A stretch of DNA of 59,755 nucleotides from Patescibacteria group bacterium (GTDB lineage: Bacteria; Patescibacteriota; Minisyncoccia; Minisyncoccales; Staskawiczbacteraceae): positions 1 to 59,755 of the forward strand of contig JBBTQJ010000031.1 of assembly GCA_038065755.1 (NCBI GenBank), written 5' to 3'. The notes below the pieces were generated by a model, which ran no database searches, was not told the DNA's origin, and was given only the letters and a program-made list of their open reading frames with translations. Both the position numbers and the translations under genes were made by a program. Of the stretch, positions 893-18,152 are shown piece after piece. Position 1 is the first letter of the stretch. Each line of letters begins with the position of its first letter.

Positions 893-1675
893 ATGCAAAA
901 CATTAAAACGATCATACTTTGCGGGGGAATGGGCACGCGGCTTAGAGAAGAAACAGAGTTTAAGCCAAAACCCTTGGTAGAGGTGGGCGGAAAGCCTATT
1001 TTGTGGCACATTATGAAAATTTACAGCCACTATGGGTTTAATGATTTTGTGCTGGCTTTGGGGTATAAGGGCAACCAGATAAAAGACTATTTTTTAAAAC
1101 AAAAATATTATACCCACGATTTTTTATTAAAGCCAAACGAGGGCAAAATCACTAATTTTTTTGAAAATAGCGGCCCCCAGGACGATTTTAATATAATATT
1201 TTCTGAAACAGGACTGGAAACTCCTCACGGAGAAAGGATTTTAAGAACGAAAAAACACATTCAAGACGATATTTTTATGGTAACTTATGGGGATGGCGTG
1301 GCAGATATTGATATTAAAAAAATAGTGGAATTTCACAGGGCCCATGGAAAAACAGGAACCATTACCGGGGTCCACCCCATATCAAGATGGGGATTTGTCA
1401 ATGTTGACCAAAACAATATGATTACGAATTTTGCTCAAAAACCCCAGCTTTACGATTATGTTAACGGCGGATTTATGGTGTTTAATAAAGAGTTTTTTAA
1501 TTATTTAAAAGAGGGCGATATGATAGAAGACGGCCTGGAAAGATTGATACAGCAAAAGCAACTGGCGCTTTATAAACACGAAAATTTTTGGTACGGAATG
1601 GATACTTACAGAGATTTTATGATTTTAAATGATCTTTGGGAAAAAGACCCAAAGTGGAAGATATGGCAAAACTAA
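893..1675 (+). CDS. rfbF: glucose-1-phosphate cytidylyltransferase
   Basis: 260 aa. It has the nucleotidyltransferase loop ILCGGMGTRLREETE, KPLVEVGGKPILWHIMKIY, and a C-terminal FWYGMDTYRD, which together are an RfbF/DdhA-like pattern. Confidence 0.9.
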   Translation: MQNIKTIILCGGMGTRLREETEFKPKPLVEVGGKPILWHIMKIYSHYGFNDFVLALGYKGNQIKDYFLKQKYYTHDFLLKPNEGKITNFFENSGPQDDFNIIFSETGLETPHGERILRTKKHIQDDIFMVTYGDGVADIDIKKIVEFHRAHGKTGTITGVHPISRWGFVNVDQNNMITNFAQKPQLYDYVNGGFMVFNKEFFNYLKEGDMIEDGLERLIQQKQLALYKHENFWYGMDTYRDFMILNDLWEKDPKWKIWQN

Positions 1676-1685
1676 TTTTAGCTAG

Positions 1686-1729
1686 CACGATTTTCTACGA
1701 TCGTAGAAAATTGTGATAGCTCGTTTTTT
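1686..1729 (+). repeat. copy A of a 44-nt palindromic intergenic element (30-nt palindrome + AGCTCG + T-run)
   Basis: CACGATTTTCTACGATCGTAGAAAATTGTGATAGCTCGTTTTTT lies directly after the rfbF stop. It is near-identical to 16077-16120. Confidence 0.85.
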
Positions 1730-1730
1730 T

Positions 1731-2681
1731 ATGATTAGTTTTAAAAATAAGAAAATTTTAATCACCGGCGGAGCGGGATTTATTGGCAGTCATTTGGCAA
1801 ATGAATTGATAAAACAGGGCAATAAAGTTGTTATAATTGACAACCTGTCTTCTGGCAGAAAAGAAGATATAAACAGAAAAGCCAAGTTTTATAAAACAGA
1901 TGTGAGGGATAAGAAAATTTATGAAATTTTTAAAAAAGAAAAACCAAAAATTGTTTTTCATTTGGCTGCCCAGCCACTTGTTGAAGATTGCTATAATAAT
2001 CCGTTTTCGGCAATAGAAACAAATGTGATGGGTACGGTGAATGTTTTGGAAACTTGCAGGAAATTAAGAAACACAGAATCAATCGTTGTGGTTTCTTCTG
2101 ATAAGGCTTATGGCAAGGCAGAAAAATTACCGTATAAAGAAGACTCTCCCCTAAGAGGAGACCATCCTTATGACGTCTCAAAATCAGCGGCTGACCTGAT
2201 AGCCAAGACATATTTTACGACTTACGGTCTGCCGGTTGTTATTACAAGATTCAGCAATGTTTTTGGACCGGGCGACCTTAATTTTTCCAGAATAATTCCC
2301 GGAGCCATAGAGTCAATTATAAAAAATAAAGAATTTTTAATAAGAAGCGACGGCAAAATGATAAGAGAATATACTTATATAAAAGACATAGTTGCAGGCT
2401 GTATAAAATTGGCTCAAAACACAAGCAAAGTAAAAGGCGAGGCGTTTAATTTTGGCTCAAAAAATATATTTTCAGTTATTGAAACAGCAGAAAAAATACA
2501 AGAAGCGTTGGGAATAAAAATTAATTACAAAATATTAAACATTGCCAAAAACGAAATACCAAACCAATATCTTGACTGGACAAAAGCAAATAAAATTTTA
2601 AACTGGCAGCCAGAAACAAATTTTGAACAAGGAATTAAGGAAACATATAACTGGTTTAAAATTAACAAGCTCATTTCATAA
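1731..2681 (+). CDS. extended SDR, putative CDP-glucose 4,6-dehydratase
   Basis: I prefer the ATG at 1731 (MISFKNKKILITGGAGFIGSH) over the track GTG at 1713, which lies inside the palindromic element. Motifs are GxxGxxG, SSDKAYG and YDVSK (YxxxK). The D-K pair resembles CDP-glucose 4,6-dehydratases rather than the D-E pair of dTDP-glucose dehydratases (from memory). Confidence 0.6.
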   Translation: MISFKNKKILITGGAGFIGSHLANELIKQGNKVVIIDNLSSGRKEDINRKAKFYKTDVRDKKIYEIFKKEKPKIVFHLAAQPLVEDCYNNPFSAIETNVMGTVNVLETCRKLRNTESIVVVSSDKAYGKAEKLPYKEDSPLRGDHPYDVSKSAADLIAKTYFTTYGLPVVITRFSNVFGPGDLNFSRIIPGAIESIIKNKEFLIRSDGKMIREYTYIKDIVAGCIKLAQNTSKVKGEAFNFGSKNIFSVIETAEKIQEALGIKINYKILNIAKNEIPNQYLDWTKANKILNWQPETNFEQGIKETYNWFKINKLIS

Positions 2682-2686
2682 AAAAT

Positions 2687-3436
2687 ATGAAAATTAAATT
2701 TTTAGGAACAAACGGTTGGTTTGACACCAAAACAGGAAATACTATTTGTACCCTTATCGAAACGAAAGATTATTTTATTGTCCTTGATGCTGGCAATGGT
2801 TTTTATAAATTAGACGAATACATTAAAGACGAAAGGCCAATTTATCTTTTTTTGAGTCATTTTCATCTTGATCATATTGTCGGGTTGCACTGTAAAAATA
2901 AATTTAATTTTAAGCAAGGGGTTTCTGTTTATGGGCAAAATGGTGTAAAAGACATTCTTAATAAAATAATCTGCCAGCCTTTCACGGTTCCCTTTAAGCA
3001 CGAATACATGTCTTTTAATATGGAAGTTTATGATTTATCCGAACAAAAAAATAACCCGCCGTTTTTGGCAGATTCAAAATCCCTGTCTCATTGGTCGCCA
3101 TGCATAGGTTTTAGGTTTAAGCTTGAAGATAAGATAGTCAGTTACTGCATTGATACTGCTCCCTGTGAAAATCTGATAAAATTGGCAGAAGACGCTGATT
3201 TGCTTATAACAGAATGTTCATTTAAGATTAACGAATATTATACCCCGCAAATCCATTTGAATCCCGGTCTTGCCGCCGAAACAGCAAAAAAAACGAAAGT
3301 AAAAAATTTAGCCTTGACACACTTTGACGCTTATAGATACAAAACATTGGAACAAAGGAAAGAAGCAGAGGAATTCGCAAAAAACATATTCAAAAACACC
3401 TTTATTGCGATAGACGATATGGAAATTGAAATTTGA
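2687..3436 (+). CDS. MBL-fold metallo-hydrolase
   Basis: 249 aa with the HxHxDH motif (SHFHLDHIVG) and a C-terminal LTHFD. Confidence 0.8.
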   Translation: MKIKFLGTNGWFDTKTGNTICTLIETKDYFIVLDAGNGFYKLDEYIKDERPIYLFLSHFHLDHIVGLHCKNKFNFKQGVSVYGQNGVKDILNKIICQPFTVPFKHEYMSFNMEVYDLSEQKNNPPFLADSKSLSHWSPCIGFRFKLEDKIVSYCIDTAPCENLIKLAEDADLLITECSFKINEYYTPQIHLNPGLAAETAKKTKVKNLALTHFDAYRYKTLEQRKEAEEFAKNIFKNTFIAIDDMEIEI

Positions 3437-3445
3437 AAATTTCAT

Positions 3446-3496
3446 AAAAAAAGCGCATGAATTGTTTTCACGCGCATGCGCAGTGTATTGTTTTTT
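3446..3496. terminator. hairpin between convergent genes, best read as the intrinsic terminator of the minus-strand Nudix gene (possibly bidirectional)
   Basis: The stem is GCGCATG (3453-3459) / CATGCGC (3475-3481). An A7 run on the left becomes a U-run immediately after the stem on the minus strand. A T6 run lies 9 nt to the right on the plus strand. Confidence 0.55.
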
Positions 3497-3516
3497 CCGC
3501 GTTGGCGGAATATAGA

Positions 3517-4062
3517 TTAGATATTGGGGTTGTCGGCTAAAAACGCGCCGAGAGCACAGGGAATAATCCTTTCGCGATGGCATTTTACGGTTTTTTCCGG
3601 CAAATTATTCACCGGGAACCACTTGCCCCGCAGTCCTTCTTTTTCTTCAAACACGCAGAGGTATACGACAGAGAGAAACGTCCCCCTGACCTCTGGTTCT
3701 AATTTTGAAGGGTTGATATTGGCAACAAATCTAGTTGAAACAAGATTTGCGCCGAATTCTTTTTCAGATAATCTTCTTAGAACATCTTCAAAACTTTCTC
3801 CCGGCCGCATTATAGAACCGGGGCAGTGCCACTCGCCAGGATAGGCGGTGTCGTCAGGCGAACGTTGAACAAGATAAACTTGAATTTCCATAAGGGTTGT
3901 TGCGTCAATTTCCGGAAGATATCGTTGCAGACGGAGACAAACTGCCTCCACTGCTACGGAAACCGTGAGTTTGGCAAGAGCATTAAAAAACTCTGTGCCG
4001 TAAGGTTGTAAAGGATCAATTTTTTTTAAACCATCAATCAATTCGGGCGTGCCTTGGGCCAT
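3517..4062 (-). CDS. Nudix-fold protein with degenerate NudD/GDP-mannose-mannosyl-hydrolase-like box
   Basis: 181 aa. WHCPGSIMRPGESFEDVLRRLSEKEFG is co-linear with WHLPGGIIRFKEKMETRLKKVSEKEIG of the ORF at 11744. It is the only minus-strand gene in the first 48 kb. Two 60-nt lines I counted inside it are 48-50% GC, which is visibly richer than the flanks. Confidence 0.6.
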   Translation of the reverse strand: MAQGTPELIDGLKKIDPLQPYGTEFFNALAKLTVSVAVEAVCLRLQRYLPEIDATTLMEIQVYLVQRSPDDTAYPGEWHCPGSIMRPGESFEDVLRRLSEKEFGANLVSTRFVANINPSKLEPEVRGTFLSVVYLCVFEEKEGLRGKWFPVNNLPEKTVKCHRERIIPCALGAFLADNPNI

Positions 4063-4172
4063 TTATGGTCTCCTTGTGAGATATTGAAATGTCAAACAAC
4101 TATTTAAGATTATATATTATAAATAAAAAATGTCAATAGTATTAAAATTTTTGTTATTAATTTAAAAAATAT

Positions 4173-5684
4173 ATGAAAAATATAAATCAAAGGCCATTGT
4201 TTATTTTTGAAATGGCAAATAATCATCAAGGGAATATTGAACATGGTTTAAGAATTATTAGGGAAATTTACGAAGTCAGTAAAGAATTTCCCTATAACTT
4301 TGCTTTTAAACTGCAAGCCAGAGATATTCCCACATTTATTCACCCTGATTTTCAAAACAGGACCGACTTAAAATATGTAAAAAGGTTTTTAGAAACAAAA
4401 TTAACAGAAGAGCAGTTTAAAATTTTAAAAGACGAAATAGATAAACTGGGTTTTATTTCAATTTGTACCCCTTTTGACGAAAAATCGGTTGACCTGATAG
4501 AACGACTCAATTTTGACATTATTAAAATAGCCAGCTGCTCTTTCACTGATTGGCCGCTGTTGGAAAGAATAGTAAAAACAGAAAAACCCATCATTGCCTC
4601 TACTTCAGGCGTTCCGTTAGAAGGCATAGACAGGGTGGTAAGTTTTTTAAGCCACAGAGAAAAGAAATTTACCTTAATGCATTGCGTTGGCGAATATCCG
4701 ACATTGCTAAAAAGCTTACAGCTAAACCAGATTGATTTATTAAAAAAACGCTACCCCGAAGTGGAAATAGGTTATTCCACCCACGAAGCGCCCGACAACT
4801 TTGATTCAATAAAAATGGCAATTGCAAAAGGTGTAACGGTTTTTGAAAAGCATGTCGGCGTAAAAGCGCCAGAAATTGAGCTTAATGCTTATTCGGCCGC
4901 GCCAGAACAAGTAAAAAATTGGCTGGCTTCAGCCAAAAACGCTTTTGAAAGCTGCGGGGTTTCAGGAAAAAGAGCTGAATTTTCAGAAAAAGAAATGGCC
5001 GATTTAAAGCAGTTTAGAAGAGGAGTTTTTGCAAAACAAATAATACAATCAGGCCAGAAAATTGATTCGGTTAATGTGTTCTTTGCCTGGCCAAGCCAGG
5101 AAAACCAGTTGCTGGCAAACAATATGTCAAAGTATGCCGACTATGCAAGCCAAAAGGACATAAATGAAAAAGAACCAATAATGATTTCTGATATAAAGCA
5201 GTCAAATAAAAGAGAAAAAGTTTATAAAATTGTGGCCCAAACAAGAAAATTATTGGAAGAGGCCAAAATAGCCCTTCCCGATAAACTGGAAATTGAAATT
5301 TCCCATCATTACGGAATAGATGATTTTTATAATCACGGAGCAGTTATTATCACCTGCGTTAACAGGGAATATTGCAAAAAGTTGATTGTTTTATTTCCCG
5401 GCCAAAGCCACCCCTCCCATCTTCACAAGCAAAAAGAAGAAACATTCCAGATTTTATACGGAGACCTTGCAATAAGCCTTGACGGCCAGGAAAAAGAATA
5501 CAAGCCCGGAGAAGTTATTTTGGTCCAGAGGGGAGTGAAGCACGATTTTAAAACAAAAACCGGCGCGATTCTTGAAGAAGTGTCAACTACACATTTTAAG
5601 AGTGATTCTTTTTACGAGGATGAAAAAATAACGGAAAACAAAGACAGAAAAACAAAATTAACCCACTGGCTTAACATAGACTAA
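4173..5684 (+). CDS. NeuB-family (PEP-dependent ulosonic-acid synthase-like) protein fused to SAF and C-terminal cupin domains
   Basis: 503 aa. The NeuB-like N-terminus is PLFIFEMANNHQGNIEHG. A SAF-like segment (RRGVFAKQIIQSGQKI) follows, and then a cupin motif (HPSHLHKQKEETFQILYGD...GEVILVQRGVKHDF). Confidence 0.7.
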   Translation: MKNINQRPLFIFEMANNHQGNIEHGLRIIREIYEVSKEFPYNFAFKLQARDIPTFIHPDFQNRTDLKYVKRFLETKLTEEQFKILKDEIDKLGFISICTPFDEKSVDLIERLNFDIIKIASCSFTDWPLLERIVKTEKPIIASTSGVPLEGIDRVVSFLSHREKKFTLMHCVGEYPTLLKSLQLNQIDLLKKRYPEVEIGYSTHEAPDNFDSIKMAIAKGVTVFEKHVGVKAPEIELNAYSAAPEQVKNWLASAKNAFESCGVSGKRAEFSEKEMADLKQFRRGVFAKQIIQSGQKIDSVNVFFAWPSQENQLLANNMSKYADYASQKDINEKEPIMISDIKQSNKREKVYKIVAQTRKLLEEAKIALPDKLEIEISHHYGIDDFYNHGAVIITCVNREYCKKLIVLFPGQSHPSHLHKQKEETFQILYGDLAISLDGQEKEYKPGEVILVQRGVKHDFKTKTGAILEEVSTTHFKSDSFYEDEKITENKDRKTKLTHWLNID

Positions 5685-5697
5685 ATTTTTTATTTTT

Positions 5698-6576
5698 ATG
5701 CAAAAAAAGATTTTAATAACCGGGGGAGACGGTTTTATAGCCAGAAATATTTTTGAGCAGCTGAATAAGGATTATAATATTATTTTCATTGATATTAAAG
5801 AGATCGATCTTTTAGATTTCTTGAAAGTTTTTAATTATTTGAAAGGCAGTAAGTTTGACGCAATAATACACGCGGCAAACTATGACGCTTCAACAAAATT
5901 TACAATAAATGACCCGGCAAAAGTTTTAGAAAACAATTTAAAAATGTTTTTTAACATTACAAGGTGTAAAGATTATTTTGGCAAAATGATTTACTTTGGC
6001 TCCGGAGCCGAATTTGGCCGTGAAAATTGGAGGCCCAAAATGAAAGAAACAGATTTTGATAAAAATGTTCCCCAAGACCAGTATGGTTTTTCAAAATATA
6101 TAATGACAAAATATGCCCAGGCAAATGAGGGCGTGCGCAATTTAAGGCTTTTTGGAGTTTTTGGCAAATACGAAGATTTCAGATATCGTTTTATTTCAAA
6201 TACCTGTTGCCGGGCGGTTATAAACATGCCTATTATTATCAATCAAAATACGCATTTTGATTATTTGCATATTGACGACTTGGCAAGGGTTGTTAAATGG
6301 TTTATTGATAACGAACCAAAAAACAAAGTTTATAATGTCTGCCCGGGACAAGTTTATGATTTAAAAACCATAGCAGAAAAAATTATTAAAATATCGGGTA
6401 AAGATTTAAATATAGAAATTAAAGAAAAAAAGCTTGGAAGAGAATACAGCGGAGACAATGCATTGTTAACGAATGAGCTGACCTGGTTTAAATTTAGTTC
6501 TACAAATGATAAAATCAGAGAATTGTATAATTGGTACGATTTAAATAAGGGTTTAATTAAAAAAGAAGAATTATGA
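5698..6576 (+). CDS. NAD(P)-dependent sugar epimerase/reductase (SDR)
   Basis: 292 aa with ILITGGDGFIARN and YGFSK (YxxxK). Confidence 0.7.
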   Translation: MQKKILITGGDGFIARNIFEQLNKDYNIIFIDIKEIDLLDFLKVFNYLKGSKFDAIIHAANYDASTKFTINDPAKVLENNLKMFFNITRCKDYFGKMIYFGSGAEFGRENWRPKMKETDFDKNVPQDQYGFSKYIMTKYAQANEGVRNLRLFGVFGKYEDFRYRFISNTCCRAVINMPIIINQNTHFDYLHIDDLARVVKWFIDNEPKNKVYNVCPGQVYDLKTIAEKIIKISGKDLNIEIKEKKLGREYSGDNALLTNELTWFKFSSTNDKIRELYNWYDLNKGLIKKEEL

Positions 6577-7574
6577 AGAAAACAAAAGCAAAATTAATAT
6601 CCCAGGTATCTCAGGAAAGACTAGAACTGGGCAAACACATTCCTTTTTTAACTCCGCTTGTAGTTTATGTAGAGCCGTCGGGATACTGTAATTTAAAATG
6701 CAGGTTTTGCATTCAAAAAACAAATGGAAAAATGTTAAAAAAAGACTTAATGTCAAAAGCTCTTTTTCTAAAAATGATTGACGACATAGCCGAGTTTCCT
6801 GAAAAAATAAAACTTTTGCGTGTTTGCGGAAATGGAGATCCATTAATAAACAGGGATATTATAAAAATGCTACAATACGCAAAAAAGAAAAAGGTTGCAG
6901 AAAAAATAGAACTGATTACCAATGGCATCATGCTTAATGAAAATTTAATTGAAAATTTGCCGAAATTTTTAAACAGATTGGTTATTTCCATAGAAGGGCT
7001 GTCTTCAGAAGATTATTGGCAGACCTCTATGGCAAAAATAAATTTTGATAATTTATTAAACAACATCAGCAGCTTAAATTTAAAAAAAGGCAAATGCGCT
7101 CTTCATATTAAAATTCACAACAAAGCGGTTTTTTCTGAAAATAAAAAGAAAAAATTTTTAGAGATATTTGACGACAAATGCGACCAAATTTACATTGAAA
7201 ATTTGGTTCCTATGTGGCCCCAACTTGATACAGATTATTTTGTTGACGAATTCAGGTGGGGAGGAGGAAAGGTTATAAAAAGGCAGGTTTGCGCGCAGAT
7301 ATTTAAAGGCGTACAGGTTCAGGCGGACGGAGATGTCGTTCCTTGCTGTGTTGACTGGAAAAGAATAAATATATTGGGAAACATTAATAAAAACTCTCTT
7401 TCTGAAATTTGGAAAGGTGAAAAGTTGAAAGAATTACAGATTAAACACTTGACGGGCAATAAAGGTAAAGTTGAACCATGCAAAGATTGTACTATGAACG
7501 ATTATTGTGAATTTGACAACATTGACCAATATACAGAAGAATGCATAAAACGTTTATGCGGTAAAATGTTATAA
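6573..7574 (+). CDS. radical SAM protein with SPASM/twitch-like C-terminal Cys cluster
   Basis: 333 aa with CNLKCRFC (CX3CX2C). The C-terminus has DGDVVPCC and CKDCTMNDYC. It is a paralogue of the ORF at 13362 and has an ATGA overlap with the upstream gene. Confidence 0.85.
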   Translation: MKKTKAKLISQVSQERLELGKHIPFLTPLVVYVEPSGYCNLKCRFCIQKTNGKMLKKDLMSKALFLKMIDDIAEFPEKIKLLRVCGNGDPLINRDIIKMLQYAKKKKVAEKIELITNGIMLNENLIENLPKFLNRLVISIEGLSSEDYWQTSMAKINFDNLLNNISSLNLKKGKCALHIKIHNKAVFSENKKKKFLEIFDDKCDQIYIENLVPMWPQLDTDYFVDEFRWGGGKVIKRQVCAQIFKGVQVQADGDVVPCCVDWKRINILGNINKNSLSEIWKGEKLKELQIKHLTGNKGKVEPCKDCTMNDYCEFDNIDQYTEECIKRLCGKML

Positions 7575-10526: not shown

Positions 10527-11734
10527 AAAAAAATATTATCAATGAAATAAAAAATAAAAAAATGCCTGTTATTATATATGGCGCAGGTATCGTAGGTAAA
10601 GTTTTGCTGTCTATCTGCAAAGAGGAGGGGATTTTGGTTGAGTGTTTTTGCGACAGCAGTGAAAAAGCGATAAAAGAGAAATTTTGCGGCAAAGAAGTGA
10701 TTTTTGCTCCCGATTTAAAAACAAAATATAAAGAAGCAATTTTTTTAATATCTGTTGCCGCCATAAAAGATGCGGCAGATCTTCTTTATGAATTAGGATT
10801 TTCTAATTGGTATGCGGGCGGTTTGTTATTGAAAGAATTAGATATTTTTCAAAGCCATCCTGATGCCTTGATAGACTATCCCAAATATGCAATAAAAACA
10901 TGCATTTTATGCCATGACGGTTATTTAAATCCAGGCAAGTTATTTTTGAGAAGCGTTGATATTATTATCACAGAAAGATGTTCTTTAAAGTGTAAGGGCT
11001 GTTCTAATCTTATGCAATATTATGAAAAGCCCAAGAACTGCGACGCCAGCATGCTATTTAAATCAATAGATGCTTTTTGCGCAGTTTTTGACGAGGTGAT
11101 GGATTTTCGCGTTATTGGCGGGGAGCCGTTTATGAATATAGAGTGGCCGATAATAGTTAAAAAATTAACGGATAATTCCAAAACAAAAAGGGTTGTTATA
11201 TACACAAATGGAACTATTATTCCAAATGAAAAATATATTCCCTATTTAAAAAATGATAAAGCAGTTGTTGTTATTTCAGATTACGGCCCTTTATCAAGGA
11301 ACCTGGCCGGACTAAAACAAATGTTGGAAAAAAATAAAATTGCTCATTATGCGTTGGAAATAACCGATTGGCTTGATTGCTCGGCAATAACGCCGCATAA
11401 TCGCAGTATTGAGGAGAACAGGGAAATATTTAAAAAGTGTTGCGCTAAAAATATGTCTACTTTATCAGACGGGAAATTTTTCAGATGCCCTTATGCGGCC
11501 AATGCCGTAAGATTATCAGCGGTTCCGGACAACAAAAATGATTATATTGATTTATTTCAAGAACCGCTTGACGAAAAAGGCATTCTTATAACGAAGAATA
11601 AAATTAGAGAGTATCTTTCAAATAATAAATATATGCAGATATGTGATTTATGCAACGGAAGGCCATTGTCCGGTTCTTCAATACCGCCAAACATTCAAAC
11701 AGAAAAACCATTATCGTATCATAAATATAATTAA
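10520..11734 (+). CDS. radical SAM protein with N-terminal small Rossmann-like domain
   Basis: 404 aa. VIIYGAGIVGK...VECFCDSSEK at the N-terminus is followed by CSLKCKGC (CX3CX2C). The C-terminus has extra Cys pairs (CCAKN, FRCPY, CDLCNG). Confidence 0.8.
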   Translation: MLKKNIINEIKNKKMPVIIYGAGIVGKVLLSICKEEGILVECFCDSSEKAIKEKFCGKEVIFAPDLKTKYKEAIFLISVAAIKDAADLLYELGFSNWYAGGLLLKELDIFQSHPDALIDYPKYAIKTCILCHDGYLNPGKLFLRSVDIIITERCSLKCKGCSNLMQYYEKPKNCDASMLFKSIDAFCAVFDEVMDFRVIGGEPFMNIEWPIIVKKLTDNSKTKRVVIYTNGTIIPNEKYIPYLKNDKAVVVISDYGPLSRNLAGLKQMLEKNKIAHYALEITDWLDCSAITPHNRSIEENREIFKKCCAKNMSTLSDGKFFRCPYAANAVRLSAVPDNKNDYIDLFQEPLDEKGILITKNKIREYLSNNKYMQICDLCNGRPLSGSSIPPNIQTEKPLSYHKYN

Positions 11735-11743
11735 TAAATTATT

Positions 11744-12235
11744 ATGAATACAAAAGAAGCGATAAAATTTTTAGACAGACAAATTAAAAATCCCAAGCAA
11801 GGCCTGCCAAAAGATATTTTTCTTTTTGCCAGTAAGATTACCCCAATGGTAAATGTTGACCTATTAATTAAAGATGAAAAGGGGCGCACGCTTTTATCTT
11901 GGAGAGACGACGAATATGGTTGCAAGGGGTGGCATTTGCCTGGAGGAATTATAAGGTTTAAAGAAAAAATGGAAACAAGGCTTAAAAAAGTATCAGAAAA
12001 AGAAATTGGCGTTATGGTAAAATTTGACCCTGTCCCAATCGCCATTAATCAAATAATGTGGAAAAAAAATATAAGAGGACATTTTATATCAATATTATAC
12101 AAATGTTTTCTTCCCGGCGGTTTTATTCCTGAAAATAGGGGGCTTTCTAAAAAAAATCAGGGGTATCTTTTTTGGCACGATTCTTGTCCTGGAAATTTTT
12201 TAAAATGCCAAGATATATACAAAAAATATATATAA
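11744..12235 (+). CDS. Nudix-fold protein, NudD/GDP-mannose-mannosyl-hydrolase-like
   Basis: 163 aa. GWHLPGGIIRFKEKMETRLKKVSEKEIG resembles the GDPMH-type box. It is a paralogue of the minus-strand ORF at 3517. Confidence 0.6.
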   Translation: MNTKEAIKFLDRQIKNPKQGLPKDIFLFASKITPMVNVDLLIKDEKGRTLLSWRDDEYGCKGWHLPGGIIRFKEKMETRLKKVSEKEIGVMVKFDPVPIAINQIMWKKNIRGHFISILYKCFLPGGFIPENRGLSKKNQGYLFWHDSCPGNFLKCQDIYKKYI

Positions 12236-12262
12236 AAATAACATTATTAAAAAATAAAAAAT

Positions 12263-13351
12263 ATGCCGATTAATCAACAAAAATTAGAAGAAGAAAAGAG
12301 AAATCGTTTAAAAAGGGCGAAACCCTATGTTTTTGAAAAGATTTCCAAGTTTGTGGAAAAAAATAAGCGGGGAGAAAGCATTGCCATTATTCAATTTCAG
12401 TATAATTTTATTTGTAATTTTTTATGCCAGCATTGTTCCGTAAAAAGATTTCAAGGGAAAGAAAATAAACGGGAATTTACCATTGAAGACGTAAAAAATC
12501 TTTCTCGCCAGGCCGATGAAATAGGTTTGGCAAGATTTGTGATTACCGGCGGAGAGCCGCTTATTTTCAAAGATTTTGACGAATTAGTGGCGGCCATTGA
12601 CCCCCAAAAGTTTTATATCAATGTTGACACTAACGGATGGTTTTTAGACGACAAAAGAGCAAGGCGCTTAAAAGAAATAGGGGTTGACAGAATTCAACTA
12701 AGCTTAGACAGTCTTGACGCCAAAGAGCATGATGATTTTAGAAGGGCTAAAGGTTCTTACGAAAGGGCGATAAAAGCTGTTGATTCAGCTGTAAATGCGG
12801 GGCTGGGAATTTTTGTCCAGACCGTTGTTACAAAACAAAGGCTCCATTCGGAAGAATTTATAGAATTTATTGAGTATTTCAACAATAAGGGCATAGGCGT
12901 ATTTGTAACTTATGCCAAGCCCGTCGGTTCATGGGAGGGAAATTTTGACATTTTGGTTAATAAGGAAGACATAAATTATATGAGCAATGTGCTTGAAAAA
13001 AAATATAATGTTTATACTCACTTAACTCCGGCTTATGGGCTTGATATGGGATGTATAGCAGTTAAAGGAATGATATCTGTAACGCAATACGGAGATGTTT
13101 TGCCATGCCCGTATATTCATACCTCTATTGGAAATGTTTTTAAAGAGCCCTTAAAAGATATAATCAAAAGAGGATTAGATATTAAATACTTTGGCGAACA
13201 CATTGACACCTGCACCATTGCGGAAGACAGGGATTTTATTGATAAATATCTGGTAAAAAAGATTTACGGAAAACCGCTTCCGGTTCCATGCCGCGAAGTT
13301 TTTACAGAAGAAGACAAAACTAAAAATCCTTTTAACGTAAAAGAAATATAA
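12263..13351 (+). CDS. radical SAM protein
   Basis: 362 aa with CNFLCQHC (CX3CX2C), GGEPL, and YGDVLPCPY near the C-terminus. Confidence 0.85.
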   Translation: MPINQQKLEEEKRNRLKRAKPYVFEKISKFVEKNKRGESIAIIQFQYNFICNFLCQHCSVKRFQGKENKREFTIEDVKNLSRQADEIGLARFVITGGEPLIFKDFDELVAAIDPQKFYINVDTNGWFLDDKRARRLKEIGVDRIQLSLDSLDAKEHDDFRRAKGSYERAIKAVDSAVNAGLGIFVQTVVTKQRLHSEEFIEFIEYFNNKGIGVFVTYAKPVGSWEGNFDILVNKEDINYMSNVLEKKYNVYTHLTPAYGLDMGCIAVKGMISVTQYGDVLPCPYIHTSIGNVFKEPLKDIIKRGLDIKYFGEHIDTCTIAEDRDFIDKYLVKKIYGKPLPVPCREVFTEEDKTKNPFNVKEI

Positions 13352-13361
13352 ATTAAAAAAA

Positions 13362-14381
13362 ATGAAGGCAAAAAATGTTTCGGGACAGGCGCCGGGAGGC
13401 AAACGGGTAAAATTGGCGGAAGTTCTTCCTTTAGATACTCCGATATTAGCGCAAATATTTCCAATATATGCCTGCAATTTTAAATGCAATTATTGCACTT
13501 TTTCGGTTGGCTTGAAAGAACGAGGATTTATTTCAGACAAAGTTTCAATGGATTTTGAGTTGTTTAAAAAATGCATTGACGATATGACAAATTTTCCGAA
13601 CAAAATTAAAACTCTGCGTTTTGTGGGAATGGGCGAGCCTCTTTTACATAAAGACATAGCAAAAATGATAGAATACGCGGTTTCAAAAAACATTGCCGAT
13701 AAAGTGGAAATTTTAACAAACGGTTCGCTCCTAACCAGAGAAATATCAGATTCTCTTATAAAAAACGGGCTTTCAAGGCTCCTCATATCTATACAGGGAA
13801 CAACAAAAGAAAAATATAAAGAAGTGAGTAAAATAGATATTGATTTTGATAAATTTGTTGAAAATTTAAGATATTTTTTTGAACAAAGCAGGGGGAAAGC
13901 CCAACTGCATATAAAAATTATAGATTACGCCATAGAGAGCGAAGAAGACGAAAAAAAATTCTACGAAATTTTTGGAGACATTTGCGACACCATAGGCGTA
14001 GAGCATGCTGGCCCCATATTTCCAGGCGTAAATTATGACAGCGTATTAGAAGGGAAAAAATCTGACACCACTCAATTCGGTCTGCCCATTTTTGATGTTA
14101 AAATATGCCCTCAGCCCTTTTTCCATATGCAGATAAATCCAGACGGAAAAGTGGTGCCGTGTTATTCGCTTTATTACCCCATAATTCTGGGAGATTGCAA
14201 TAAAGAGTCGGTATATGGAATATGGAACAGCAAAAAATATAAAGATTTCAGAAGAAAGATGCTTGAGGGCACAGAAAATGTATCTGAAATATGCAAAAAT
14301 TGCGAAATTATCAAGCACAGATTATTTTCAGAAGACCTTTTAAATAATGATGCCGAGCGCCTTAAAAAATTCTACGAATAA
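13362..14381 (+). CDS. radical SAM protein with twitch/SPASM-like tail (paralogue of 6573)
   Basis: 339 aa with CNFKCNYC. KIKTLRFVGMGEPLL parallels KIKLLRVCGNGDPLI of the ORF at 6573. The tail has DGKVVPC and CKNC. Confidence 0.85.
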   Translation: MKAKNVSGQAPGGKRVKLAEVLPLDTPILAQIFPIYACNFKCNYCTFSVGLKERGFISDKVSMDFELFKKCIDDMTNFPNKIKTLRFVGMGEPLLHKDIAKMIEYAVSKNIADKVEILTNGSLLTREISDSLIKNGLSRLLISIQGTTKEKYKEVSKIDIDFDKFVENLRYFFEQSRGKAQLHIKIIDYAIESEEDEKKFYEIFGDICDTIGVEHAGPIFPGVNYDSVLEGKKSDTTQFGLPIFDVKICPQPFFHMQINPDGKVVPCYSLYYPIILGDCNKESVYGIWNSKKYKDFRRKMLEGTENVSEICKNCEIIKHRLFSEDLLNNDAERLKKFYE

Positions 14382-14394
14382 GATTATTAAAATC

Positions 14395-16056
14395 ATGAAA
14401 CTAAGCGATTATTTAGTTAAATATTTGGAAGAAATTACAGACAGCGTTTTTTTGGTTTCAGGAGGAGGCCATATGCATACAGTTGACTCTATTGGAAAAT
14501 CAAAATTAAATGCTTATTGCTGTCACCACGAACAGGCTTGCGCTCTGGCGGCTGAAGGATATTCCAGAATAAACAATGATAAAATCGGAGTGGCGGCTGT
14601 TACTTCGGGCCCTGGAGGAACAAACGCCATTACCGGAGTCGGGTCTGCTTGGGTTGATGGGATTCCCATAATGGTTATTTCAGGGCAAGTAAGAAAAGAA
14701 ATAAAACTTACAAGAGAAGATATACAAATAGGTTTGAGAAGATTGGGCGAGCCTCAGGAAATAAATTTATTAGACTGCGTAAAACCTATTACAAAATATG
14801 CAGTATGCATAGAAAATCCCGATGAAATAAAATATCATCTTGATAAAGCATATTATCTGGCAAAAGAAGGAAAGCCCGGGCCGGTTTGGCTGGAAATTCC
14901 CTTAGACATACAGGCAGCTGAAATCGACGAAAATAATTTAAAAGAATTTGAAGCGCCCAAAAAACAAGTATACGAAATTCCTTTTGAAAAAATTACAGAA
15001 CAGCTTAACAAAGCAAAAAAGCCGCTGATGATTGTGGGAAACGGAATAAGATTGGCCGGCGCAATTCCTCAGTTATGGGAATTTATTGAAAAAACAAAAA
15101 TCAATGTGGTTTCTGCAATGAGCGGAACAGATTTGGTTAATGACGACTATCCTTATTATTTGGGCGAGCAGGGGCTGTCTGGAGTGGAAACCGCCAATTA
15201 CGCAGCTGACAACTGCGACTTATTATTGATAGCAGGAACAAGAATGCAAATCAGAAACACTTCTTTTGAATATAAAAAATTCGCTGAAAACGCCGTAAAA
15301 ATAATGGTTGATATAGACCCGGCTGAATTTTCTAAAAAAACATTAAAAATTGATATTCCCATTATAGCTAATGCCAAAGATTTTTTAGAGGGGCTGTTAA
15401 AGCAGGATATTAAATTAAAAAGATGGGATGTAGAAAAAAAGTCTATTTCTTATGAAGTTAACGATAAATATATTGATATTTATCAGTTTTTGGAAGCTTT
15501 AAGCAACAAGTGCGATTATCCGGTTGTCACTGCAAACGGCATGGCAGCTGAAACCCCTCACCAAGCCTTAAAATTAAAAAAAGGCCAAAGGTTGATTACC
15601 AACACCGCTTTTGGAGAAATGGGTAAGGGCTTGCCAATGGCAATTGGCGCCTCTGTTGCCCTAAATAAAAAATCGGTAATATGTATAGAAGGTGATGGCT
15701 CTATTATGATGAATATGCAGGAACTTCAGACAATAATTTTTCACAAGCTCCCGATAAAAATATTTTTATTAAACAATGATGGATATTATTCCATAAGAAA
15801 TACTCATTTGAAATTTTTTAACAAAATATTTGCCGCAGACGAAAATTCGGGAGTAGGGCTGCCTAACTGGAGCAAGTTAGCCCCTGCCTTTTCAATAAAA
15901 TACGAATCAATAAAAGAAGAAAAAGATTTATATAAAATAAAAGACGTTTTAGATTTTTCAGGTCCTGTTTTTTGCGAGGTCTTTATTGACCCCTATCAAA
16001 AAAAGCTCCCCAAATGGGAAGCCGGCCTTTTAACAAAATTATTAAAAGAGCCATAA
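14395..16056 (+). CDS. thiamine-diphosphate-dependent enzyme of the acetolactate-synthase large-subunit family (YerE-like candidate)
   Basis: I chose the ATG at 14395 (MKLSDYLVKYLEE) because the track start at 14347 overlaps the upstream CDS. The ThDP motif GDG-X24-NN is read directly (GDGSIMMNMQELQTIIFHKLPIKIFLLNN). Confidence 0.8.
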   Translation: MKLSDYLVKYLEEITDSVFLVSGGGHMHTVDSIGKSKLNAYCCHHEQACALAAEGYSRINNDKIGVAAVTSGPGGTNAITGVGSAWVDGIPIMVISGQVRKEIKLTREDIQIGLRRLGEPQEINLLDCVKPITKYAVCIENPDEIKYHLDKAYYLAKEGKPGPVWLEIPLDIQAAEIDENNLKEFEAPKKQVYEIPFEKITEQLNKAKKPLMIVGNGIRLAGAIPQLWEFIEKTKINVVSAMSGTDLVNDDYPYYLGEQGLSGVETANYAADNCDLLLIAGTRMQIRNTSFEYKKFAENAVKIMVDIDPAEFSKKTLKIDIPIIANAKDFLEGLLKQDIKLKRWDVEKKSISYEVNDKYIDIYQFLEALSNKCDYPVVTANGMAAETPHQALKLKKGQRLITNTAFGEMGKGLPMAIGASVALNKKSVICIEGDGSIMMNMQELQTIIFHKLPIKIFLLNNDGYYSIRNTHLKFFNKIFAADENSGVGLPNWSKLAPAFSIKYESIKEEKDLYKIKDVLDFSGPVFCEVFIDPYQKKLPKWEAGLLTKLLKEP

Positions 16057-16076
16057 GTTTTTATTATTTTAGATAT

Positions 16077-16120
16077 CACGATTTTCTACGATCGTAGAAA
16101 ATCGTGACAGCTCGTTTTTT
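16077..16120 (+). repeat. copy B of the 44-nt palindromic intergenic element
   Basis: CACGATTTTCTACGATCGTAGAAAATCGTGACAGCTCGTTTTTT lies 21 nt after the ThDP-enzyme stop. The palindrome is a perfect 30 nt, and there are 2 substitutions relative to copy A. Confidence 0.85.
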
Positions 16121-16152
16121 GAAATATTTTTGAATAAAAATAAAAAAATAAA

Positions 16153-16803
16153 ATGATAAAAAATATTATTTTTGATTTTGACGGAACGCTGGTTGATTCC
16201 AGTCCGGGAATTGTTAAAACTTTCGGACAAATTGCAAAAGAATTAACAACAAACGAAATTACAGAACAGCAAATAACGCAATTAATTGGTTTGCCCTTGG
16301 CAAAGTTTTTAAGCATTCTTTTAAATACAGACGACCATGAAATAATTAACAAGGGCAGTGTTTTGTTTCGGGAATATTACAGCAAAGACGGAATCAATCA
16401 TAATGTCGTTTACCCGGGAATTGAAGAGATGTTAATTTCTCTGAAAAATTTATCTTGCCGGCTTTTTATAGTAAGCAATAGAATAGAATTATTTTTGAAA
16501 AAAATATTAAAACAGCACGGCCTGGAAAAATATTTTGTTTTTGTGCGCGGCACAGACGGAACAGACGCGCAATCTAAAAAAGCAGATTATGTCAAAGACA
16601 TTATTGCAAAATATCAATTAAATAAAGAAGAAACAATTATTGTCGGCGATACAGATGGAGATATTGCAGCCGGAAAAGAAAATTCTATTTATAGCGTCGG
16701 AATAACATGGGGATATGGGGCAGAAGCCGGTCTGATTAAAGCCAAAGCAGATATGATTTGCCGCGCGCCCCAAGAATTGCAACAATTTATTGAAAAAACA
16801 TGA
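16153..16803 (+). CDS. HAD-superfamily phosphatase (phosphoglycolate-phosphatase-like)
   Basis: 216 aa with the FDFDGTLVDS motif I and GDTDGD motif. Confidence 0.8.
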   Translation: MIKNIIFDFDGTLVDSSPGIVKTFGQIAKELTTNEITEQQITQLIGLPLAKFLSILLNTDDHEIINKGSVLFREYYSKDGINHNVVYPGIEEMLISLKNLSCRLFIVSNRIELFLKKILKQHGLEKYFVFVRGTDGTDAQSKKADYVKDIIAKYQLNKEETIIVGDTDGDIAAGKENSIYSVGITWGYGAEAGLIKAKADMICRAPQELQQFIEKT

Positions 16804-18152
16804 GAACAGAAAAAAATATCAGGAAAGAAATTTTAAATAAAGTTAAAGAGTTTTATAAATTCAGAAAAAAGGGGGAGGAAGTTTTTGTTGCCGGGAAAAG
16901 CCGAGTAAATTATGCCGGACGGGTTTACGATGAAAAAGAAATGATAAATTTGATTGATTCATCCTTGGATTTTTGGCTTACTTCAGGAAGATATGCCAAA
17001 CAGTTTGAAAAAGAATTTGCCGGGTTTCTGGGCGTAAAATACTGTCTCTTAACCAATTCCGGCTCTTCGGCTAATCTTTTGGCAGTTTCTGCTTTGACTT
17101 CGCCCTTGCTTGGAAAAAAGCAATTGAGGTCCGGCGACGAAGTTATTACCACTGCCTGCGGTTTTCCCACTACCTTAAATCCAATTCTACAAAATAATTT
17201 AGCTCCGGTTTTTGTTGATATTGAATTAGGAAGTTATAATATAGATGTTTCTAAAATAGAAAAAGCCATTTCTAAAAAAACAAAAGCCATTTTTATCGCC
17301 CACACCTTGGGGAATCCGGCTGATTTAGATAAAATTTTAAAAATAGCAAAAAAATATAATCTATGGCTAATTGAAGACGCGTGTGACGCATTGGGTTCAA
17401 AATATAATAATAAATATATCGGTTCTTTCGGAGATATAAGCACCTTTAGTTTTTTTCCGGCTCATCATATTACAATGGGCGAGGGCGGGGCTGTTTTAAC
17501 AAACAATCTATTGCTTAAAAAAATAGTCGCTTCTTTTCGCGACTGGGGCAGAGATTGCCGGTGTGAGCCCGGCAGTGACGATACTTGTAAAAAAAGATTT
17601 TTTTGGCAAATGGGAAAACTGCCAAAAGGGTATGACCATAAATATATTTATTCCCATATTGGCTATAATTTAAAAATCACCGATATGCAGGCGGCAATCG
17701 GGCTGGCTCAGCTTCAAAAATTACTCGGATTTATTGAAATGAGAAAAAATAATTTTAATGCAATTTATAAATTTTTTTCCGCCAAAGGTGGATCCGCTTC
17801 GGGCGGGAAAAAATACGAAAAATATTTTATTCTGCCAAAAACAGAAGAAAATTCAGAGCCGTCGTGGTTTGGCTTTTCGGTTTTAATAAAAGAAACAGCT
17901 CCATTTAAAAGAAGCGAAATTGTAAACTATCTTGAAGAAAACAAAATTAGCACCCGTATGCTTTTTGGCGGAAATCTGTTAAAACAGCCGGCTTATCAAA
18001 ATGTAAAACACAGGATTGTTGGAAACTTAAAAAATACAGATTTAGTTATGGAAAACCTTTTTTGGATTGGCGTGTATCCCGGCATAACAAAAGAAAAGTT
18101 AAATTATATGACAGCCGTTTTAGGCGATTTTTTAAAAAAATATGATAGATAA
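16800..18152 (+). CDS. rfbH: CDP-6-deoxy-L-threo-D-glycero-4-hexulose-3-dehydrase (E1, RfbH/DdhC type)
   Basis: 450 aa with a DegT-fold. His replaces the Schiff-base Lys: FFPAHHITMGEGG here versus FFPNKQITTGEGG in the aminotransferase at 38125. The spacing C-X57-C-X1-C-X7-C is exact (EDAC...DCRCEPGSDDTC). Confidence 0.85.
   Translation: MRTEKNIRKEILNKVKEFYKFRKKGEEVFVAGKSRVNYAGRVYDEKEMINLIDSSLDFWLTSGRYAKQFEKEFAGFLGVKYCLLTNSGSSANLLAVSALTSPLLGKKQLRSGDEVITTACGFPTTLNPILQNNLAPVFVDIELGSYNIDVSKIEKAISKKTKAIFIAHTLGNPADLDKILKIAKKYNLWLIEDACDALGSKYNNKYIGSFGDISTFSFFPAHHITMGEGGAVLTNNLLLKKIVASFRDWGRDCRCEPGSDDTCKKRFFWQMGKLPKGYDHKYIYSHIGYNLKITDMQAAIGLAQLQKLLGFIEMRKNNFNAIYKFFSAKGGSASGGKKYEKYFILPKTEENSEPSWFGFSVLIKETAPFKRSEIVNYLEENKISTRMLFGGNLLKQPAYQNVKHRIVGNLKNTDLVMENLFWIGVYPGITKEKLNYMTAVLGDFLKKYDR

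Follow-up and report, generated by a model that had tools for sequence, protein, structure and literature searches.

A block of genes at positions 893-18152 of a 59,755-nt stretch of DNA from a Patescibacteria group bacterium (contig JBBTQJ010000031.1) appears to specify an unusual surface sugar. The whole stretch is termed the window, and all coordinates refer to it; the entire window is a glycan locus of >50 kb. The reading favored here, with modest confidence, is that the product of the block is a long-chain 3,6-dideoxyhexose, branched at C-4 and nucleotide-activated, destined for a surface glycan, and that this sugar would then be tailored by radical S-adenosylmethionine (rSAM) enzymes. 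The gene set appears to follow the logic of the YerE-type pathways to acyl-branched sugars; their testable features are found in it except for an aldolase-type donor supplier and the E3 reductase. The rSAM genes are optional tailoring modules of a modular, horizontally shared cassette.

Window positions 1-22000 were mapped for open reading frames (ORFs) and then searched for Pfam and NCBIfam domains. Every element listed in a preliminary description of the block is present at the position given there. The genes are as follows.

Start 163: WbqC, first gene in the order, before the RfbF-like gene
893..1675, plus strand: RfbF-like glucose-1-phosphate cytidylyltransferase (Pfam NTP_transferase); proposed step 1 of acceptor supply
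1713..2681, plus strand: cytidine diphosphate (CDP)-glucose 4,6-dehydratase-like short-chain dehydrogenase/reductase (SDR), with an alternative ATG start at 1731, the one given in the preliminary description; proposed step 2 of acceptor supply
2687..3436, plus strand: metallo-beta-lactamase (MBL)-fold hydrolase (Pfam Lactamase_B_2); accessory
3517..4062, minus strand: divergent Nudix protein, distant paralogue of Nudix163 (weak NUDIX match); accessory
4173..5684, plus strand: NeuB-type synthase fused to a cupin (Pfam NeuB and Cupin_2)
5698..6576, plus strand: SDR292, proposed YerF-like reductase of the branch carbonyl (Pfam Epimerase)
6573..7574, plus strand: rSAM_A, radical-SAM/SPASM protein, optional paralogue of rSAM_B (Pfam Radical_SAM and SPASM)
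7580..9400, plus strand: B12-binding rSAM protein, B12-rSAM (Pfam B12-binding and Radical_SAM)
9411..10526, plus strand: family 2 glycosyltransferase (GT2), termed GT2a (Pfam Glycos_transf_2)
10520..11734, plus strand: rSAM404, with an N-terminal domain resembling binding domains for nucleoside diphosphate (NDP)-sugars and a radical-SAM core
11744..12235, plus strand: Nudix163, GDP-mannose mannosyl hydrolase (GDPMH)-like Nudix protein; member of the tailoring trio
12263..13351, plus strand: rSAM362, MoaA/AhbD-like rSAM enzyme; member of the tailoring trio
13362..14381, plus strand: rSAM_B, BtrN-like "twitch" rSAM enzyme; member of the tailoring trio and comparative anchor
14347..16056, plus strand: YerE-like thiamine diphosphate (ThDP)-dependent carboligase, proposed branching enzyme (three TPP domains)
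16153..16803, plus strand: haloacid dehalogenase (HAD) phosphatase (Pfam HAD_2)
16800..18152, plus strand: RfbH/E1, pyridoxamine phosphate- and [2Fe-2S]-dependent CDP-4-keto-6-deoxyglucose 3-dehydrase; proposed step 3 of acceptor supply
18142..19266, plus strand: GT2 glycosyltransferase (Pfam Glycos_transf_2); export/assembly context
19297-20742, after the preceding GT2: Wzx flippase (Pfam Polysacc_synt); export/assembly context

The genes are tightly packed, as had been noticed, with five start/stop overlaps and intergenic gaps of at most 110 nt. Pfam confirms the GT2 (9411), the MBL hydrolase (2687), the ThDP enzyme (14347) and the NeuB-cupin fusion (4173). Both of the NudD-like Nudix proteins that had been named are present and GDPMH-like, but the copy at 3517-4062 is on the minus strand. 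The SDR at 5698-6576 and the HAD phosphatase at 16153-16803 were not mentioned in the preliminary description and are both assigned here to the pathway.

Independent assemblies made from the 0.1-um filter fraction of groundwater from Hainich well H43 contain at least 8 contigs with identical proteins, and one of these contigs is part of the metagenome-assembled genome (MAG) GCA_964362995.1. Thus the Cys motifs discussed below survive re-sequencing. A database entry with 100% identity is labelled "Patescibacteria group bacterium", and the nearest relatives carry the label Candidatus Staskawiczbacteria.

One genome per GTDB species was scanned with rSAM_B as the anchor, which yielded 79 loci (individual loci have labels beginning with L). 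Occurrence of the other genes was read from a tblastn presence matrix, with the best assignment per interval, and from all-vs-all clustering of 1,233 ORFs. The locus counts are lower bounds because many loci end at contig edges. At least 79 species-level genomes carry the cassette, and they range from Patescibacteria to Deltaproteobacteria, Lachnospiraceae and archaeal MAGs. Isolates among them include Telmatospirillum siberiense, Pseudothauera nasutitermitis and two Butyrivibrio strains; Geobacter sp. SVR, with its cassette at about 4.56-4.58 Mb of AP024469.1, was identified separately. Key enzymes of the cassette have thousands of metagenomic homologues. For rSAM_B there are 1,396 database clusters at E <= 1e-10, and members of 63-70% identity occur in MAGs labelled Omnitrophica, Desantisbacteria, Syntrophobacteraceae and Bathyarchaeia.

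The genes that accompany the anchor, each in at least the given number of the 79 loci, are rSAM362 (74), Nudix163 (65), NeuB-cupin (57), ThDP (57), RfbH (42), the 4,6-dehydratase-like SDR (42), B12-rSAM (35), RfbF (30), rSAM404 (26) and rSAM_A (12). The canonical order is RfbF - dehydratase - RfbH - NeuB-cupin - small phosphatase - ThDP - (B12b) - Nudix - rSAM362 - rSAM_B, continued by SDR318 - double GT2 - SDR(adh) - rSAM487 - B12a - B12a - FkbM methyltransferase.

Genes proposed for acceptor supply and branching

The preliminary description had placed a CDP-4-keto-3,6-dideoxyhexose core in the block. This is borne out, and such a core is very probably encoded there, judging from the sequence matches. 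RfbH (16800) matches the E1 equivalog NF011936 with 710 bits (cut-off 423) and the Yersinia E1 structures 3bcx/3bb8 with E = 3e-159. It displays the distinguishing features of E1: the DegT fold, a His in place of the Schiff-base Lys, in the catalytic-His motif PAHHITMGEGG at residue 220, and the Fe-S ligand spacing C195-X57-C253-X1-C255-X7-C263, as in the E1 [2Fe-2S] motif. The RfbF-like and SDR products have their best matches in the right families. The SDR (1713) carries an S-D-K motif (SSDK) and a YxxxK motif (YDVSK); its slot is held elsewhere by f19, a canonical CDP-glucose-dehydratase-like protein of ~360 amino acids. In 28-30 loci, the RfbF-like gene comes first in the conserved cassette. 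By homology, the three enzymes would make CDP-4-keto-3,6-dideoxy-D-glucose.

In the pathways to yersiniose, erwiniose, caryophyllose and "gastriose", a YerE-type enzyme joins CDP-4-keto-3,6-dideoxyglucose with an alpha-keto acid, and a reductase acts next (Steitz et al. 2022, PMC9306805). Members of this "unifying scheme" are YerE/YerF, ErwE/F/I/J, MMAR_2331/2332 and MyGE, and in the known acyl-branched pathways a neighboring pyruvate aldolase supplies the keto acid (PMC9306805).

YerE-type branching is a likely activity of the cassette described here as well. The top PDB match of the ThDP enzyme (14347) is 8rph, the YerE-like enzyme JanthE (328 bits, compared with 229 bits for the best acetolactate synthase), and the GDG-X26-NN motif is intact at residue 449. 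This ranking and the motif point to the YerE-like subclass rather than to acetolactate synthases or decarboxylases, a placement made through the PDB entry of JanthE. The carboligase lies in one operon with the CDP-4-keto-3,6-dideoxyglucose genes and a reductase gene, and the gene string that links the three is kept in L012, L093, L094 and L095. The enzyme would decarboxylate its presumed keto acid substrate and add the acyl-anion equivalent to the C-4 ketone. SDR292 (5698) would then reduce the branch carbonyl. Its YerF-like role is assigned on account of 51-58% identity to the SDR that directly follows the ThDP gene in L093 and L094.

Locus L094 has the full base module with zero rSAM genes, in the order RfbF-SDR-RfbH-NeuBcupin-NT5C-like-ThDP-SDR294. 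The core had previously been described as interrupted by the rSAM genes. This does not hold: the ThDP enzyme, NeuB-cupin, SDR292 and the HAD phosphatase form, together with the core, a conserved base module.

NeuB-family enzymes yield 3-deoxy-2-ulosonic acids, which are alpha-keto acids. The NeuB-cupin fusion (4173) would condense phosphoenolpyruvate (PEP) with an aldose to form such an acid. Confidence in the fusion as putative supplier of the donor is evenly divided. Pyruvate aldolases of the BphI/HpaI/citrate-lyase type, which serve branches longer than C2, are absent from the conserved cassette families, and NeuB-cupin holds the neighboring position. A PEP-dependent NeuB-type supply predicts a C8-C9 ulosonic donor.

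The NeuB domain gives 376 bits with PDB 3g8r, itself uncharacterized, and ~75 bits with true NeuB enzymes. The NeuB/PseI equivalogs are not reached (TIGR03569, 136.5 vs a cut-off of 399.65; TIGR03586, 125.7 vs 340.25), and the C-terminal domain is a cupin instead of SAF. Thus the protein has a NeuB fold and belongs to a distinct subfamily, which comprises at least 7,947 clusters. The cupin part matches D-lyxose isomerase (2y0o) and resembles lyxose/mannose isomerases. This suggests an isomerase that may deliver the aldose.

NeuB-cupin and the ThDP gene occur together in 42 of 50 full loci, and in 31 of these 42 they are 1-2 genes apart. None of the 50 has the ThDP gene without NeuB-cupin. In a sample of three NeuB-cupin contexts drawn without use of the rSAM anchor, every one has a ThDP gene inside a 21-kb locus. 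A CMP-sugar synthetase homologue was found in only 2 of 83 loci (L071:3902-4585 and L054:1333-2016), compared with 60 loci that have NeuB-cupin, which indicates that the ulosonic acid is usually not itself the glycosyl donor. L071 has no ThDP gene, and there the NeuB-cupin product may be CMP-activated rather than serve as ThDP donor.

The HAD phosphatase (16153) may strip phosphate from the ulosonic acid precursor or product. In other loci an NT5C-like protein of ~200 amino acids (f8) lies between NeuB-cupin and the ThDP gene. The HAD protein was considered as an orthologue of f8 or of f21 and has no detectable similarity to either; because it adjoins the ThDP gene, as a HAD gene directly after ThDP also does in Geobacter sp. 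SVR, it is treated as a functional analogue of f8.

The cassette shares with the nonulosonic acid pathways (NeuB/PseI/LegI, and the synthase for the 9-phosphate of 2-keto-3-deoxynononic acid (KDN) with its HAD phosphatase) the NeuB fold and the HAD partner. It also shares with them, and with NudD/Gmm, a hydrolase able to free a sugar from an NDP-sugar, functionally as PseG/LegG do. It differs from them in the distance of its NeuB domain, in the cupin that replaces SAF, and in that no CMP-synthetase was found in 81 of the 83 loci.

The likeness to the acyl-branched pathways extends over the acceptor route (the E1 3-dehydrase, with a putative cytidylyltransferase and a putative 4,6-dehydratase), the YerE-like carboligase with its adjacent SDR-type reductase, an enzyme beside the carboligase that is able to make a hydroxylated alpha-keto acid, and the setting in a surface-glycan locus. 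Several features are unlike. The cassette has a presumably PEP-dependent NeuB-cupin and a phosphatase where those pathways have an aldolase of the BphI/HpaI/citrate-lyase type; no E3 was found in it; and it adds 2-7 rSAM genes as well as tailoring enzymes with a shared NDP-binding-like domain. Its hosts are mostly uncultured anaerobes, candidate phyla radiation (CPR) bacteria and archaeal MAGs.

Proposed radical-SAM tailoring modules

All five CX3CX2C triads that the preliminary description had quoted are present and intact. They are conserved without exception in the family alignments: CNLKCRFC (6573) in 13/13 sequences, CPFNCTFC (7580) in 28/28, CSLKCKGC (10520) in 21/21, CNFLCQHC (12263) in 66/66 and CNFKCNYC (13362) in 77/77. 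PF04055 is over its cut-off for all five ORFs, and the weakest match is that of rSAM404 (33.1 vs 29.5). A number of five was thought to be exceptional. It is not, since full loci carry 2-7 genes of rSAM families, with a mode of 4.

rSAM_A (6573) has its triad at residue 39 and 8 further conserved Cys. The proposed paralogy of rSAM_A and rSAM_B is confirmed (38% identity, E = 2e-64), as are their SPASM tails (59 and 60 bits). The relatives of rSAM_A in the PDB are DesII and the auxiliary-cluster domain of BtrN.

B12-rSAM (7580) does have the cobalamin-binding-like N-domain ascribed to it (PF02310, 62.3 bits vs a cut-off of 32.1; PF04055, 69.8 bits). This predicted layout, an N-terminal B12-binding domain and a radical-SAM core, is that of cobalamin-dependent class B-like enzymes. 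There is also a Zn-ribbon-like segment of two CxxC motifs, in which C456, C459, C478 and C481 are conserved. The best PDB match is AprD4 (1.8e-13), which is not a methylase. No NCBIfam equivalog is reached, the best being BchE (144 vs 481).

rSAM404 (10520) has its triad at residue 154, 10 further conserved Cys, and a weak PDB match to 7wzv. It is nearly always adjacent to GT2a: both genes are present in 13 full loci, rSAM404 alone in 2 and GT2a alone in none.

rSAM362 (12263) has its triad at residue 51 and a conserved auxiliary Cys set; its PDB matches are MoaA (9e-19), SkfB and BlsE. The family comprises 2,985 clusters. The 120 best matches are 74-92% identical, and none has a functional name. 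This range of identity spans Patescibacteria, Omnitrophota, Deltaproteobacteria, Nitrospirae and Kiritimatiellaeota. Such conservation is unusually strong for a tailoring enzyme and points to frequent horizontal transfer together with tight constraint.

rSAM_B (13362) has its triad at residue 38 and a BtrN-like pattern of conserved auxiliary Cys (C249/C267/C311/C314). A sequence search of the PDB yields the auxiliary-cluster domain of BtrN (5e-13) and also BlsE. The AlphaFold model has a predicted local distance difference test (pLDDT) score of 72 and a predicted template modeling (pTM) score of 0.78. With this model, a fold search ranks BtrN first, DesII second to sixth and BlsE seventh; peptide-modifying enzymes are lower. 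The four auxiliary Cys and the predicted fold likeness to BtrN are features of the twitch/SPASM sugar-dehydrogenase type. In the archaeal-labelled MAG GCA_043814905.1 (Nanoarchaeota; L092:3919-4935) the orthologue is split into a 150-aa Radical_SAM ORF and a 184-aa SPASM ORF; the cassette is thus present in an archaeal-labelled MAG, and a LAGLIDADG/NUMOD3 homing-endonuclease gene lies at the locus edge.

It is most likely that the rSAM enzymes act on sugars rather than on peptides. Nucleotide sugars or the glycan had been put forward as their substrates, and this is sustained: the relatives are BtrN, DesII, BlsE and AprD4, and two of the enzymes carry the NDP-sugar-binding-like domain. Like BtrN, DesII, BlsE, AprD4 (with AprD3) and the B12 methylases of GenK/Fom3 type, they combine an rSAM core with an auxiliary-cluster ("twitch"/SPASM) Cys set. 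BtrN, DesII, BlsE and AprD4 are their closest sequence or fold matches, and the substrate of DesII is an NDP-deoxysugar. Just as AprD4 has an SDR reductase as its partner, the cassette trio goes with SDR318/f20. Similarity to these characterized enzymes is low, with 13-18% identity in fold alignments and scores well short of every NCBIfam equivalog cut-off. Each of them works on its own in an antibiotic pathway, whereas several occur together in a glycan cassette here. Some cassette rSAMs are fused to the NDP-binding-like domain; no characterized one is.

The add-ons to the base module would be the trio Nudix163/rSAM362/rSAM_B with the paralogue rSAM_A, the B12-rSAM, and the GT2a-rSAM404 pair. 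The BtrN/DesII-like enzymes probably abstract a carbinol hydrogen, which would lead to oxidation, epimerization or deoxygenation, and B12-rSAM probably methylates or rearranges an unactivated carbon. As specific chemistries, all of these are doubtful at best.

In the trio, Nudix163 adjoins rSAM362 or rSAM_B and is found in 65 of 79 loci. The family profile has GDPMH (1rya/2gt4) as its top PDB match (E = 1e-9), with the same modified Nudix box. GDP-mannose mannosyl hydrolase releases a free sugar and NDP. The second Nudix protein (3517-4062) is rare in related loci and shares 28% identity with the Nudix163 orthologue from L093. An MBL hydrolase homologue occurs in only 2 of 79 related loci.

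The modules are found in several combinations. All are together in the window and in Geobacter sp. SVR. L044, from a Patescibacteria MAG (SCQK01000002.1), has RfbF, the dehydratase-like SDR, RfbH, rSAM362, B12b and two rSAM_B genes and no NeuB-cupin or ThDP gene; there, an unbranched CDP-dideoxyhexose may be the sugar that the rSAM enzymes tailor. At three Rhodocyclales loci, the trio and the GT2a-rSAM404 pair lie in a glycan locus, and CDP-sugar genes are missing within 10 kb; L093 has rSAM362 and Nudix without rSAM_B. A strict dependence of the trio on the branching module was considered and rejected, as L044, L063, L064, L070 and L085 have the trio without that module.

A domain of ~80 amino acids, Rossmann-like and corresponding to Pfam C2185-like_N, which is recorded for the rSAM404 product, was followed with an iterated hidden Markov model (HMM) seeded on rSAM404 residues 11-105. 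It is found in about 184 proteins of these loci. The copies in the window are at residues 16-94 of rSAM404 (E = 1.1e-22) and at the C-terminal residues 510-586 of B12-rSAM (E = 1.7e-12). N- or C-terminal fusions join it to at least 10 catalytic families; the partners include B12a-rSAM, rSAM404, rSAM487, some rSAM_B paralogues, SDR, FkbM methyltransferase, pyruvyl-transferase-like proteins and class-I methyltransferases.

The domain profile matches the PglF/WbpM-type N-domain 3nkl (1.4e-11), the NAD-binding domain of Rex, the N-domain of VioB (1.2e-4), the C-domain of TcaB9, a dTDP-sugar C-methyltransferase (2.3e-4), and PglD (0.03). Its only nearly invariant residues are G9 and D33. The VioB N-domain holds dTDP via Gly11/Gly67 and Asp32/Lys37, and its GxG and Asp positions contact pyrophosphate and ribose (PMC9271549). 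Like the N-domains of the NDP-sugar N-acetyltransferases of VioB/PglD/PerB type and of PglF/WbpM (Pfam C2185-like_N / CoA_binding_3), the shared domain has ~80-90 residues, a GxG motif and an Asp ~24 residues later. Unlike them it is portable, at either terminus, and joined to rSAM, B12-rSAM, SDR, FkbM, class-I methyltransferase and pyruvyl-transferase-like partners. It is a candidate portable NDP-sugar docking module. If it binds the nucleotide handle, the enzymes that carry it act on NDP-sugars; B12-rSAM and rSAM404 would dock on the CDP moiety via this VioB/PglD-N-domain-like module.

A literature search gave no relevant work linking radical SAM to CDP-glucose, YerE, O-antigen or nucleotide sugar. 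The rSAM tailoring layer, the portable domain and the proposed PEP-dependent donor route have not been published as far as found, with a survey of >200 YerE-like clusters (Angew. Chem. 2024, e202403535) lying outside the comparison. The preliminary description had suggested a sugar with no described pathway. This stands for the rSAM steps, for which no described pathway was found, but the base module follows the described YerE-type scheme (PMC9306805).

Points against and alternative readings

Several points weigh against a long-chain branched sugar made and tailored at the CDP level. The RfbF-like product (893) aligns over its full length with TIGR02623 at 257.6 bits, under the cut-off of 300.25. 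The best NCBIfam match of the SDR (1713) is the CDP-glucose 4,6-dehydratase model TIGR02622, also full length, at 207.7 bits (cut-off 278.45). The E3 (AscD/RfbI) partner of E1 was not found in the window or the 79 loci by a weak regular-expression test for plant-type 2Fe-2S and ferredoxin-NADP reductase (FNR) motifs. In five full loci the trio occurs with no NeuB-cupin or ThDP gene within 10 kb and is thus independent of branching. The TM-scores of the rSAM_B fold search are modest (0.46-0.61, from a model of pLDDT 72), and the correspondence of G9/D33 to Gly11/Asp32 of VioB rests on approximate alignment positions. The donor of YerE is pyruvate (PMC9306805), so the ThDP enzyme could install a C2 branch, with NeuB-cupin serving otherwise. 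The GDPMH-like Nudix is without a role in a purely CDP-level pathway, and it may instead release free sugar for NeuB. Finally, the source contig has a CMP-transferase ~6 kb upstream.

With regard to E3, the E1-type enzyme SpnQ works with general cellular reductases; the lack of a local E3 therefore does not rule out function. A general cellular reductase would have to feed E1, there being no local one. Replacement of E3 by an rSAM enzyme or another local Fe-S protein was also considered and is unsupported, as the rSAM-free L094 is likewise without E3.

The points on pyruvate and on the CMP-transferase lead to the alternative that two or more separate sugars are made: a C2-branched, yersiniose-like or an unbranched 3,6-dideoxyhexose, through a pyruvate-using ThDP enzyme, and a CMP-activated ulosonic acid resembling KDN or 3-deoxy-D-manno-octulosonic acid (KDO), from NeuB-cupin. 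The latter would itself be built into the glycan, and the rSAM genes would tailor either of them. NeuB-family products are normally CMP-activated, the upstream gene on the source contig is a CTP_transf_3-DUF218 fusion, and L071 combines a CMP-transferase with the absence of ThDP. Nevertheless this alternative is unlikely. A CMP-transferase homologue is as rare in the related loci as noted above, the upstream one lies in its own module with a canonical NeuB-SAF, and the ThDP gene, usually 1-2 genes from NeuB-cupin, is never without it in full loci.

In a different order of events, the rSAM enzymes would act after glycosyl transfer; their substrates would be a lipid-linked or polymerized glycan or the lipid carrier instead of CDP-sugars. 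This order is improbable. The fusion of the NDP-binding-like domain to rSAM404, B12-rSAM, r487 and some rSAM_B paralogues argues against it, as does the presence of DesII, a TDP-sugar enzyme, among the closest folds, and in L044 there is a direct link of rSAM genes with those for RfbF, the dehydratase-like SDR and RfbH. On its side are the near-constant pairing of rSAM404 with a GT2, the trio of the Pseudothauera glycan locus, which has no NDP-sugar genes within 10 kb, and the GDPMH-like Nudix with no obvious role at the CDP-sugar level.

Quite improbable is a two-carbon homologation, in which the ThDP enzyme only decarboxylates the ulosonic acid to a 2-deoxy-aldose, without joining it to the CDP-ketosugar, and the CDP-dideoxyhexose is a separate product. 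Many enzymes of the ThDP superfamily in the PDB list are plain alpha-keto acid decarboxylases, and NeuB-cupin and ThDP are more tightly tied to each other than to RfbH (present within 10 kb in 28 of the 42 loci). However, the best relative of the ThDP enzyme is a YerE-like carboligase and not a decarboxylase, a sugar kinase able to return a free 2-deoxy-aldose to activated form was not seen, and in L094 RfbF-SDR-RfbH lies immediately upstream in the same gene string.

The remaining alternative, that the SPASM/twitch enzymes mature a nearby peptide made by ribosomes and modified after translation (RiPP), is rejected as largely refuted: SPASM domains and weak NCBIfam matches to peptide maturases are in its favor, but the intergenic gaps of <=110 nt leave no room for a precursor-peptide gene (none had been seen in the preliminary description either), all peptide-maturase models stay well below their cut-offs, sugar enzymes head the fold matches, and the genes always lie within nucleotide-sugar/glycan loci, in at least 79 genomes.

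Flanking modules and significance

Upstream of the window on the source contig (L007:663-9835) is a separate module of the nonulosonic acid type. Its genes are SDR, DegT, DUF4430, DUF6580, methyltransferase, NeuB-SAF, DegT, the CTP_transf_3-DUF218 fusion and a 564-aa B12-binding rSAM. With the last, the contig has a sixth rSAM gene, of the B12 type, a short way upstream of the window. It was considered as part of the cassette and rejected, with 25-28% identity to the B12b family and a place in the nonulosonic acid-type module.

Downstream of the block, a plus-strand gene (32013-35858) encodes a 1,281-aa protein with ~480 unannotated N-terminal residues, a Wzx-like Polysacc_synt domain (484-754) and a family 4 glycosyltransferase domain (895-1248). 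A second sugar module follows on the same strand (35851-41110), with a Bac_transf initiating transferase, HAD, ATP-grasp (PylC-like), DegT aminotransferase and PglF-like dehydratase, which suggests an acylated di-amino or bacillosamine-type sugar. A third Nudix gene (46698-47285, plus strand; canonical domain, 53.8 bits) is beside SecA, outside the sugar block; SecDF and MurB are also encoded elsewhere in the window, and the three mark the organism as bacterial. One minus-strand ORF (48564-50075) has the unusual architecture of a LexA DNA-binding domain, an S24 peptidase and an N6/N4 DNA methyltransferase. At 55526-59068 (plus strand), a TrwB/TraG-like coupling ATPase with a treble-clef zinc finger is followed by a second protein with the same finger; these may belong to a DNA-transfer or uptake system.

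In a broader and more speculative form, which is possible and held only tentatively, a family of C13-C15 "composite" sugars would be made by uncultured anaerobes in their thousands, CPR bacteria and DPANN-type archaea among them; a YerE-like ThDP enzyme would join a 3,6-dideoxyhexose to a NeuB-derived ulosonic acid, and the product would be rewritten by 2-7 rSAM enzymes that are recruited via the portable NDP-binding domain. The rewriting would comprise deoxygenation, epimerization, C-methylation and possibly radical C-C cyclization, which would give carbocyclic or bicyclic sugars resembling caryose or bradyrhizose. The domain would be the carbohydrate counterpart of the RiPP recognition element, acting on the CDP handle.

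The cassette is widespread and chemically rich; its base logic is known, and five rSAM genes are typical within the family. The question is directly testable, since some hosts are in culture: Geobacter sp. SVR, Telmatospirillum siberiense 26-4b1, and Butyrivibrio spp. such as INlla16 and NC2002. rSAM362 and its partners are attractive targets for new radical chemistry, and the candidate docking domain may be used for mining tailoring enzymes. If the proposed pathway is correct, the ThDP scheme for acyl-branched sugars would gain a new donor source, PEP-derived ulosonic acids, and sugars larger than any branched monosaccharide yet described would be predicted. Rather than being restricted to a handful of antibiotic pathways, the chemistry of rSAM enzymes on nucleotide sugars would then be a common, modular means by which anaerobes, and the ultra-small CPR and DPANN organisms with their almost unstudied envelopes, diversify surface glycans.

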